Positions 4,061 through 63,799 of a stretch of DNA of 64,000 nucleotides are shown one piece after another; the first letter of the stretch is position 1, and each line of letters begins with the position of its first letter. Both the position numbers and the translations under genes were made by a program. The notes under the pieces are model-generated. The model was not told where the DNA came from. It did not search any database and worked only from the letters and a program-made list of their open reading frames with translations. The stretch is from Eledone cirrhosa (taxonomy: Eukaryota). The stretch lies in contig OZ024743.1 in assembly GCA_964016885.1 (NCBI GenBank), forward strand, positions 242,048,001 to 242,112,000. The letters are read 5' to 3'.

Positions 4061-4164
4061 TTCCCAACGACTTTCTTTAGCCATTGCTCGCACCAACCGG
4101 AGGTATATGGTCTTTAAAGCGAAGAAATACCGATCATGGTGAATACCGATCACTGATGAAGGAC
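4061..4164 (+). ncRNA. Permuted HHR-like motif, family 1, partly degenerate copy
   Basis: GGUAUA|UGGUC...GAAAUACC...GAUCA-CUGAUGA-AGGAC. The linker is altered relative to the 4705 copy. Confidence 0.5.
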
Positions 4165-4704: not shown

Positions 4705-4806
4705 GTCCCAACGACTTTCTTTAGCCGTTGCTCGCACCAACCGGAGGTATATGGTCTTTAAAGCGAAGAAATACCGATGATAGTTGGAAGATCACTGATG
4801 AAGGAC
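4705..4806 (+). ncRNA. Permuted HHR-like motif, family 1
   Basis: Stem III GGUAU/AUACC, site AUA|, stem I UGGUCUU/AAGAUCA, GAA at 4768-70, CUGAUGA at 4795-4801. Confidence 0.65.
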
Positions 4807-9466: not shown

Positions 9467-9519
9467 CTGCCTGAAGAGGTCACAGCCAAAGATGGCTGTC
9501 ACCGAAATATATATAGCAG
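9467..9519 (+). ncRNA. Type I hammerhead ribozyme (canonical core)
   Basis: CUGC-CUGAAGA-GGUCACAGCCA(AAGA)UGGCUGUCACC-GAAAUAUAUAUA-GCAG, within a ~310 bp repeat (9350-9660) that has a homologue at 58250-58590 (-). Confidence 0.9.
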
Positions 9520-55000: not shown

Positions 55001-55999
55001 TTTAAAGTAAGATTTAATACCTACAAACATAGTTTTAAAAATGCCGTATTAGCTAATACAACATCCTTGGCTGAAATAATTAATAATTATAGAAAGAAGA
55101 ATATTGATTACAACCTGACCTGGAGCGTGCTCAAAAGAGCCACCCCTTGTCAAAATAGCAGATACGAGTGTAGGTTACGCTCCCAGGAACTTTTTCAAAT
55201 CATGAAATCTAAGGATATCCTATTAAATAAGCGACGGGAATTAATTATATCTTGCAATCATAGAATTAGAAGAACCTTCAAATATTATAAACCTAATTAA
55301 TATACACCTTACTCTTATATTTTACAAATTATTATAATTGATTTTTTAAATTTAATTAACCTATAATTAGTATTTTACTACAGGGAACTTCATAATTTTA
55401 TTTCCCTCTTACAGATCTCTTTTCCTAAAATGAATACCTAAATGTATACCTATAAATTAATTTAATTTCCTGTTATGTATCTAGATTCCTTGTAGTTTAA
55501 ATAAGATTGGTATTTCTCACTACTACCCTTATCCCAAAATGTTACTTTCCTTCGTTTTTAACAACACTCTTTAATAACATCTAATTCTTATTTATCACAT
55601 TCATATGAATTAATATAACTTTATCCCTATAAATATACCTATCAATTAATTTAATTTATTGTTATAGATCTAGATTCCTTGTGGTTTAAATAAGATTGGT
55701 ATCTCTCACTAATACACTTACCCTAACATTTTATTTTCATTCGTTTTTAACGTTATTCTTTAATAACATAAAATGTTCGTGTACCTTTCACTATCACCTT
55801 GGCTTGACCTCTTTTCACCCCTAAAGTATTCTTTTCATTCAAAACATAAGTCTGCACTCCTCTACCCCTAAATTAAATTTCTACTACTACTATTCTATCA
55901 ACTTGACCTCTAACTACTTTTCTATTTGTCAATTCAAAACCTGTTCCCAAACAGACCTTTTATATTAAATTTTTGTTTGTTTTTTTCAATAAACACATC

Positions 56000-56135
56000 T
56001 CATCATTTCTGAGGACGGCTTGTATATGTGAAGGTATGTATATTTTTTCTGATAATTTGTAATATTTTTACATAGATCTATATGATATACATACCAACAC
56101 ACTTTTACATCGCAGAAACGATCGTAAAATGATGA
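56000..56135 (+). ncRNA. Type I hammerhead ribozyme with a ~100 nt stem II domain
   Basis: UCAUCAUUU-CUGAGGA-[GGUAUGUAUAU/AUAUACAUACC]-GAAACGAUCGUA-AAAUGAUGA. The base of stem II is imperfect. Confidence 0.8.
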
Positions 56136-62023: not shown

Positions 62024-62363
62024 TGAGGATGTCTATGTGTGTGTAATAGTAAGTTTTTTTTTTCAATTTCGTGGATCTATATATTACGCATGCATTCATA
62101 TATTTAACTACATGCTTATACATACCCTATGTGTATGTGGAAACATGTATATGTCACACGTACAAATGTTGACATGAAGAAGATGGATATATTACGTAGA
62201 TATTATGATGTCATATGGATATAAACATTGTTTTTTCATCCATATATATATATATATGTGTGTGTATACAAAAAGTTATGAAATGAAAGGAGCTGTGTGG
62301 TTACTAAAAACAAGGTTTAGGATGGTGGTTAGGACGGAACAAGAGGAGAGAGGAAGAAGGAGT

Positions 62364-62474
62364 TTCCATCGTCAGCTGTAAATGTATCTCAAACTGATGT
62401 TTCGGCGCTGAATTACAGGACATCGGTGTAGTTCTGGTGCGCCCGAGGCCTCTTATTTATCAAAAGGCCAGGTA
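62364..62474 (-). ncRNA. Permuted HHR-like motif, family 3
   Basis: Minus strand: GGCGC...GAUGUC|CUGUAA-UUCA-GCGCC-GAAACAUC...UUACAG-CUGACGA. Stems I, II and III are all perfect Watson-Crick. Confidence 0.72.
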
Positions 62475-63799
62475 GAAAAGGAGAGAGAAAGAGAGGAAAA
62501 AATGGAGCAAAAAGGAAAGAGAGGGAAAGGAGGAAGAACAGGGGGGGGGGGAGATGAAGAGAGAGGAAGAAGGGGGAAAATAGGAAAGGAATAGAAGAAA
62601 ATAAATGAACAGATCCCATCGTGGGAAGACACAGGTGAAAGAAACATGCAAAAATGTAACCGTGGAAAAATAGGGAAAGTAAGTTGTGGCCAACCTGGGA
62701 GACTTTACATATATATATATAGGAAAATGTTTAACCCCAACGGCTTGATCTCTGCCGTCGGGGTTAATCATTTTCCTATTACCCACTCTACTACCCTAAG
62801 TATTGAGTACTCTGGTGCGTTATGGTCCATCTGTTCCTTACCACACCTCCTTCGCTATATATATATATCTTTACATGTATATGTGATATGTGTGTGTGTG
62901 TAGGTGTTTGTATTCCCGTGCAGCCGGAATTCGATGTCTTCACAAACTCCATATTCGATAAAATGTATCTTTGTCAAATATGAACTCGTAGTAAATTTTA
63001 GCCGAACTATTAGACCTCGCTGGTAAGACTGGGTCAATATATGGGCGTGGTGGTGGATAGGTGAATGAACGTGTGAATGTATGGGTAGATTGATAGGTTG
63101 GTGAACGGGTTGGTGAATATAGTAGAGTGATGAGTTGAGTGATGGGTAGATGGGTGAAGGGCAATAGATTGATGGATGAGTAGATGGGTTGGAAGACTGA
63201 TGGGTGGGTGAATAGGTGGACGTGTAGGTGTAGGTGGATGAATAGGTGGACGTGTAGGTGGGTGATTAGAAGGATAGATAGGTTGATTAAAGCTTTGGTG
63301 GGTAAAAGGTTAAAGGGTTGGATGGGCTGTTGGGTGAATTCGTGGAAGGGTGGATTCGTAAATAGACGGATGGATGCGTGGATGTATTGATGGGTGACTG
63401 AGTGAATGGGTAGATGGATGGTGTGTTAGAAGAAGCACTTGAAGCAGAGAACAAAAGAAAAATTTGTGAAGGGATCGATGTATATTTGAATGAGTGAACA
63501 GGGGTATGTGAACGTTAATAAATTCAGAAAACGTGGATAGAATGTTATATGTTTATATTGTGTTGCACAGCTGAATAATTCTTTTGTCCAATATGAGCCA
63601 GTATATTAATTGCAATTATCACCCATTGGTGGATATTAGTTATTATGCAAAATCAAACTTAAAATATATAAATATGTGAAACTTCGGTGAGCTGTTTGAA
63701 ATATATATCACTTAACTACCAAAAGTATGAAAGGCAAAGTTTCCGTCGGCGAGATTTGAACTCAGAGCGCGAGCATAAAAAATTCCTTTATCGACCTTG

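Follow-up and report, generated by a model that had tools for sequence, protein, structure and literature searches.

A hammerhead-type motif with an opened core and a predicted self-cleaving fold in non-coding repeats of Eledone cirrhosa

In Eckert 2023, hammerhead ribozymes are described as permutations of three blocks, C, G and S, which are assumed to be uninterruptible and for which six orders are listed (PMC10085705). Cleavage has been demonstrated for the SGC, CSG and GCS orders, and SGC RNAs have a short linker between stems I and II and require a joining helix in order to cleave. The SGC examples given there are almost all metatranscriptomic, type CSG was previously known from two metagenomic examples only, and a single GCS candidate stems from the genome of a known organism. 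Among the published hammerheads covered, no more than 1–2 nt separate CUGAnGA from stem II (PMC10085705).

The closest animal systems are linked to Penelope-like elements (PLEs). Minimal type I hammerheads sit in PLE terminal repeats, often with an extra base between positions 9 and 10.1 and with a conserved G10.1–C11.1 pair, and many animal hammerheads work as dimers (PMC4209133). Animal retrozymes, defined by type I hammerheads, have been tied to PLEs in a preprint (Li 2026, 10.64898/2026.07.22.740005). In Frangieh 2024, reverse transcription of an anole PLE starts internally, and its canonical hammerhead needs protein for cleavage and is dispensable for insertion in vitro (PMC11167929). Naiad PLEs were reported without canonical hammerheads in Craig et al. 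2021, where unexplained cores and half cores are flagged, including eight "half core" cases with an octopus Naiad among them (PMC8557442).

The window analysed here, a stretch of 64,000 nucleotides from E. cirrhosa, carries a permuted hammerhead-type motif on its minus strand at 62363–62478, in line with the core and stems proposed by a first-pass annotation. The core consists of CUGACGA (62369–62375), GAAA (62400–62403) and a GUC triplet (62419–62421), and all elements of a hammerhead core (CUGAnGA, GAAA, NUH and A15.1–U16.1) are present. Flanking it are stems I, II and III with 6, 5 and 5 bp, as annotated, for which related families show covariation. The window copy has the G10.1–C11.1 pair, and the 5 bp of stem III include A15.1–U16.1. 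By analogy with known hammerheads, the cut is predicted between 62419 and 62418.

Reading 5′ to 3′ on the minus strand, the motif opens with one strand of a closing helix, P0 (62473–62478), followed by the hairpin P4 (62447–62469, 9 bp) and the strand of stem II with G10.1 as its first base (62439–62443, pairing with 62404–62408). This strand would be expected after A9 and sits instead at the 5′ end of the motif. A linker containing the 5′ strand of a I–II joining helix (62432–62437) leads to block S (62413–62426), made up of a stem III strand, GUC and the stem I strand 62413–62418, which pairs with 62376–62381. After a 4-nt linker comes block G (62394–62408) with its stem II strand (62404–62408), GAAA and a stem III strand. 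A further linker, holding the 3′ strand of the joining helix (62388–62393), precedes the rest of block C (62369–62381), namely the stem I strand 62376–62381 and CUGACGA. Immediately after A9, the 3′ strand of P0 (62363–62368) pairs with 62473–62478 in 6 bp, one of them a G·U. The upstream hairpin had been recognised before, at 5 bp instead of 9, and the closing helix had been estimated at about 2 bp; it begins outside the edges then drawn for the motif.

The resulting block order is S-G-C, with P0 and P4 turning the A9/10.1 link into a four-way junction. A9 is joined to the stem II strand neither directly nor through 1–2 nt, since P0 and P4 intervene. The crossings of this junction (P0, P4, stem II and the G12–A9 face) hold 0, 3, 3 and 0 unpaired bases in the window copy's family, designated family 3. 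Among the matches listed, the strand after A9 forms 0–1 bp with the strand preceding GAAA. Two other parses were ruled out because they leave 0–1 bp of stem II: one takes the bases that follow CUGACGA for a second minimal core, the other treats the motif as an ordinary SGC hammerhead. The contact between stems I and II is provided by the joining helix between the two long linkers, the one after the 5′ stem II strand pairing with the one before the 3′ stem I strand, a feature overlooked in the first-pass annotation.

Two of the known non-circular types come close to this layout. It shares with type SGC (HRIMA-1 and variants, PMC10085705) the S-G-C order, the full core, a stem I–II linker of 2–5 nt there, a helix that connects stems I and II on their other sides, and at least two pseudoknots. 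However, block C is uninterrupted in type SGC, whereas here it is split: its stem II strand, together with one joining-helix strand, is placed ahead of the rest, and a four-way junction at A9/10.1 is formed by P0 and P4. Moreover, the window motif lies in a mobile repeat of an animal genome, whereas type SGC is mostly metatranscriptomic. With type CSG (CSG-1 and CSG-2, PMC10085705) it shares the circular strand order and can be described as C-S-G opened between A9 and 10.1; unlike type CSG, it ends within an added helix inside the core link and not at a peripheral strand. The minimal type I hammerheads of other PLEs (PMC4209133) resemble it in having an insertion at 9/10.1 and G10.1–C11.1. There, one extra base is inserted and the fold is nested and dimer-dependent, whereas here the junction adds two helices and the fold is pseudoknotted and predicted to be monomeric.

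The nested three-stem order of the Rfam hammerhead types I–III is likewise absent, the order being S-G-C. Rfam models gave no match at gathering score over the window, and near the motif no hammerhead match up to E 5, just 7 weak unrelated ones. Our literature searches, for which subscription papers lay mostly outside reach, returned nothing on non-circular hammerheads in animals and nothing on a four-way junction at A9/10.1. Judged by its predicted pairing, the layout is outside the six orders of Eckert 2023. If true, the hammerhead, which has been studied more closely than any other small ribozyme, would no longer obey the rule on which its "six possible permutations" rest, and non-circular permutations would move from environmental RNA to animal genomes, at high copy.

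The same plan recurs in further repeat families. Family 1 is represented on the plus strand of the window at 4061–4164, with a partly rearranged linker, and at 4705–4806, in a tandem unit of 642 bp; family 2 lies on the plus strand at 35238–35338 and 35766–35866, its tandem unit measuring 528 bp. There is a clear relationship between families 1 and 2 (77/105 identical columns, z 14). Family 3 shares 57/117 columns with family 1 and 56/118 with family 2 (z 2.8 and 1.7), which bears out the earlier statement that it has little sequence likeness to them. Its "independence", also claimed, holds for sequence and not for origin, since the six-helix plan is common to the families. All six helices (P0, P4, II, III, I and joining) are found in 9/9 copies parsed, as is a stem I-to-stem II linker of 3–5 nt. 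The S-G-C order with a short linker agrees with type SGC, and family 3 builds the common six-helix plan from different letters. Copies elsewhere in the genome keep the core and pairings, the point on which the first-pass annotation had let its proposal stand or fall: GUC, GAAAC and CUGAnGA are in register in 28 of 33 family-3 copies.

We measured how far helices had been rewritten by exchanging strands between family 3 and four other families. Positions that still pair after the swap number 5/32 in stem II, 11/40 in the hairpin, 20/40 in stem I and 25/32 in stem III. The description of the helices as "fully swapped" therefore goes too far.

Covariation was analysed in 15 natural copies of related families, with family 3 omitted (it was misaligned by MAFFT). 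In this alignment 88.9% of 506 cells are paired, and 19 of 34 pairs show compensatory, both-side changes that represent every one of the six helices, including 5/7 pairs in stem I, 2/5 in stem II, 1/5 in stem III and 5/6 in the joining helix. None of 500 shuffles scored as high and slid registers pair at 30–46%, although these controls are lenient and overstate significance because the structure was derived from the same, related sequences. No variation occurs in GAAA or at five of the seven positions of CUGAnGA, and C3 is almost invariant. Within families, substitutions fall at 2/396 core and 20/957 loop positions, which is no evidence of selection given that copies were chosen by similarity.

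The families differ in core detail. The junctions of families 1, 2 and 4 hold 0–1 unpaired bases per crossing, G10.1–C11.1 is missing from all three, and in the best parse of families 1 and 4 the base preceding GAAA is unpaired. More split-motif families or subfamilies were seen at L002:1231-1359(+), L194-L222, L037, L097, L149 and L160, some of them in flanks; they have AUC or AUA sites and rewritten helices.

Because family 3 is the sole family here combining GUC with G10.1–C11.1, it is the best family for an assay construct. The window copy itself, which had been put forward as the best construct, departs from the commonest letter at three joining-helix positions, with two departures in the 3′ strand, and at one distal stem III position. 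Its joining helix is reduced to 4 bp and its stem III to 5 bp, compared with 8 bp each in copy L002, and the G·U of P0 reflects a C-to-U change at a pair that is G–C in other copies. Since the damaged helix is the one that SGC RNAs need for cleavage (PMC10085705), an undamaged copy such as L002 is preferable. The window copy is a somewhat decayed insertion, with cleavage that is likely slower than that of its source copies; we judge it about as likely as not that it still cuts well.

The motif is carried by a non-coding repeat. At 62269–62707 (minus strand), between TA-rich microsatellites, lies a 5′-truncated copy covering unit positions 356–818 of the family-3 unit, which measures ~770–820 bp, is non-coding and ends in (TA)n. 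Family-3 units stand head-to-tail in loci L010, L023 and L029. Searching the 3.0-Gb genome gave 929 candidates for family 3, 2625 for family 1, 1513 for family 2 and 1714 for family 4, all of them first-look figures and not copy numbers, with 40 scored in each. The scored family-3 copies are 90–94% identical, the window copy itself aside, and the best-scoring copies of families 1 and 2 are 97–99% alike. A repeat search of the whole window was dominated by microsatellites. A de novo scan over 200 kb of other stretches yielded two strong matches and one weak match, its control giving 11 matches in 20 shuffles at a relaxed setting.

Among 30 family-3 loci, 25 end at unit positions 805–818, while their 5′ ends lie anywhere between 1 and 566; at the 3′ end a strict TA test is passed by 19, and two have an inverted piece. 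A fixed 3′ end at (TA)n, 5′ truncation and tandem or inverted copies make up the pattern expected of a Naiad-type non-autonomous element. Given the fixed 3′ end at TA, the motif strand is likely the RNA strand. The predicted cut falls at unit position 664, ~150 nt upstream of the usual family-3 3′ end.

The units also agree with retrozymes in being non-coding and tandem with one hammerhead each (~770–820, 642 and 528 bp). The animal non-LTR retrozymes of Li, Clavereau and Pollet (2026 preprint) likewise have non-coding units, a few hundred bases long and arranged head-to-tail, carry one hammerhead per unit and are proposed to be non-autonomous PLE derivatives. However, theirs is a type I hammerhead, which the motif here is not: it is non-circular and core-opened, with a long stem III.

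Naiad PLEs (PMC8557442) provide another parallel. Like the repeats described here, they target (TA)n, are truncated at the 5′ end, occur in tandem and inverted copies and have a motif near the 3′ end and, by eye, the same six-helix layout, whereas the window repeat unit has no ORF. Excerpts of File S5 of Craig et al. 2021 (PMC8557442) were read by eye and not computed, which misses matches broken by line ends; they comprised CTGATGA places 26–54 of 62, CTGACGA 4–23 of 23, CTGAAGA 4–33 of 43 and CTGAGGA 4–13 of 25, together with the whole of part 24 and 3′ ends. Within this material the split layout was seen in 10 of 54 Naiad consensi, and the ten represent five phyla: Bfor, Chem-3, Amil, Aacu, Anas, Movir-2, Plae, EuTe, Obim and Ovul. 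The hosts are a ctenophore, a hydrozoan, three corals, a box jelly, an acanthocephalan, a clam shrimp and two octopuses. By the same reading, a G–C pair closes stem II in all ten, no base is left unpaired at the junctions of the coral, acanthocephalan, clam-shrimp and octopus consensi, and stem I of Bfor is just 2 bp. In Naiad_Ovul the motif lies ~1 kb downstream of the ORF and ~90 nt upstream of the 3′ end.

Six nematode Naiad consensi, also read by eye (PMC8557442), have an unsplit type-CSG arrangement with a long joining helix, and one of them has a single extra base after A9. The spider, ostracod and squid Naiad excerpts do not parse into the split layout, and nothing resembling it was seen in the bivalve Naiad 3′ ends read. 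As a separate observation by eye, oyster and ark-shell Naiad 3′ ends share another conserved, self-complementary motif; it is no hammerhead and might represent a structured RNA of another kind.

Within the E. cirrhosa genome, protein searches for Naiad reverse transcriptase (RT) gave 62 and 151 matches; among 150 listed, the longest open frame is 298 aa. The Naiad RT remnants observed (L162:4800-6290, L163-L192 and L223-L250) are decayed, none being intact, in contrast to the young motif-bearing short repeats. Intact motifs were found beside 0 of 30 remnants with 1.5-kb flanks and 0 of 20 with 5-kb flanks, a motif profile gave nothing convincing behind the remnants, and no sequence link emerged between the repeat unit and these remnants of the genome. 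A pair of short patterns taken from the octopus Naiad in the literature had no match in the genome, while a looser one retrieved one decayed Naiad reverse transcriptase remnant. A decayed motif behind that remnant was considered and rejected, as it was mostly a short internal repeat.

Long PLE frames of non-Naiad clades are present in the genome. A link of the motif to PLEs with a C-terminal endonuclease was rejected after 30 GIY-YIG loci proved to be without it. In ten-kb GIY-YIG regions the motif occurred in 2 of 20, in neither case at the end of a PLE ORF, and the repeat units share no common stretch of at least 40 bp with GIY-YIG loci besides family copies. The PLE link suggested by the first-pass annotation is thus supported through the published Naiad consensi, with the layout read by eye, and finds no counterpart beside the remnants of this genome.

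Taken together, the motif is likely a new hammerhead layout, predicted to be active at family level, and was likely inherited from Naiad Penelope-like retroelements as a predicted self-cleaving ribozyme. What the sequences establish are the core letters, the six helices, their covariation and the repeat architecture; catalysis, stacking, circles and a partner enzyme are what we infer. We consider it probable that the motif is a self-cleaving, monomeric hammerhead that cuts after GUC in each tandem unit and keeps the ends clamped, favouring circles that are copied into (TA)n. As usual for hammerheads, stem II would stack on the G12/A9 face, while P0 stacked on P4 would make up the junction's other arm. 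The 4-nt linker between stems I and II, together with the joining helix, would replace the loop–loop contact and allow one motif to fold as a monomer. S-G-C wiring, a short I–II linker and a joining helix are compatible with cleavage, as has been proven for type SGC (PMC10085705). Given a long stem III whose loop is not palindromic, we would not expect cleavage to depend on RNA concentration.

Cutting at every unit of a tandem transcript would free unit-length RNA. Four helices (P0, II, joining and III) would span the cut, with ~25 bp in undamaged copies, so that the unit ends may stay clamped; judging from topology alone, this would favour circles or rejoining. A PLE reverse transcriptase acting in trans could then start ~150 nt downstream of the cut and insert 5′-truncated or tandem copies into (TA)n.

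The broader proposal is that the motif represents a seventh natural hammerhead topology, pseudoknotted and with a four-way junction opening its catalytic core, ancestral to Naiads from comb jellies to octopods as their ribozyme, abundant, circle-making and invisible to descriptors; taken as a whole, we lean slightly towards it. If true, it would explain the apparent absence of ribozymes in Naiads, which are dominant in many invertebrate genomes, and would place the motif among the most abundant ribozymes of such genomes while invisible to every hammerhead descriptor. It would also suggest an evolutionary series from the unsplit C-S-G of nematodes through one extra base at 9/10.1 to the full junction. 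The junction would then be a natural core site for grafting helices, of use in RNA switches and circular-RNA tools.

Alternatively, the motif could be a hammerhead-derived fold that no longer cuts itself and likely acts as a binding or start signal for a PLE reverse transcriptase. Its fixed distance from the insertion 3′ end would fit such a role, as would the canonical PLE hammerhead, which is protein-assisted and unneeded for insertion (PMC11167929). Yet the catalytic letters, including NUH and A15.1–U16.1, stay fixed while the helices are rewritten across families, and by eye they are kept across five phyla in the published consensi consulted (PMC8557442). With all catalytic letters kept, a mere binding site is hardly expected, and we regard this alternative as rather unlikely even though families 1, 2 and 4 have no G10.1–C11.1. 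Every published hammerhead covered by PMC10085705 keeps the link that the junction breaks, with at most 1–2 nt there, so the junction might disable the core.

Alternative wirings of an active ribozyme were weighed as well. P0 comes straight after A9 and might be the true stem II, and four-way junctions have two stacking options; however, the G–C closure belongs to the helix that ends before GAAA, both in family 3 and, by eye, in the ten Naiad consensi. A tandem transcript might also fold across two units, with CUGAnGA of one unit and the rest from the next giving C-S-G, and P0 closed by the whole spacer. The units are indeed tandem, nematode Naiads use the C-S-G order (by eye, PMC8557442) and many animal hammerheads work as dimers (PMC4209133). 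Against this, all six helices can form within ~120 nt, and in families 1, 2 and 4 the minimum-energy folds of single motifs contain the nested helices P0, P4, joining and III. We therefore view an active but differently wired motif as quite unlikely and retain the monomeric, S-G-C-wired hammerhead as the preferred reading.

A descriptor for the split order found five matches in the window, one from family 3 and two apiece from families 1 and 2, whereas 100 dinucleotide shuffles of the window gave six in all. With the core letters fixed and the rest shuffled, 0 of 200,000 sequences matched stems I, II and III plus the closing helix together, and five matched stems I and III alone. Plain folding did not reveal the motif (z –0.82), as expected for a pseudoknot. 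That repeat amplification produced these pairings by chance is highly improbable: copies within a family are non-independent and the plain fold is unremarkable, but the shuffle controls, the compensatory changes in all six helices and the recurrence of the plan in the sequence-unrelated family 3 all argue against it.

Several other elements of the window deserve mention. PLE ORFs with a C-terminal GIY-YIG domain lie at 26347–28844 (–), 2268–2996 (–), 38835–39654 (+) and 52784–55300; the window PLE ORFs have RWR and DKT motifs that fit the Hydra clade as described in PMC8557442. Pfam assigned no family to six window ORFs, these GIY-YIG PLE ORFs included. The PLE copy at 51956–56128 has long inverted arms.

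Adjoining the window copy, at ~62711–62860, is a short, often inverted repeat that contains GAAA and GUC as well as a stem III whose loop is palindromic. It has 33 further matches in other loci (e.g. L004, L006, L013, L039, L053 and L065), and no CUGAnGA was found nearby among the 14 matches listed. Its sequence suggests a half hammerhead, the other half being lost or elsewhere. Lastly, the window also contains ordinary minimal hammerheads of type I whose stem III is short, with CUGAnGA on the plus strand at 9471, 34436 and 41679 and on the minus strand at 38699, 58470 and 59264; canonical and rewired hammerheads therefore coexist here in different repeats.
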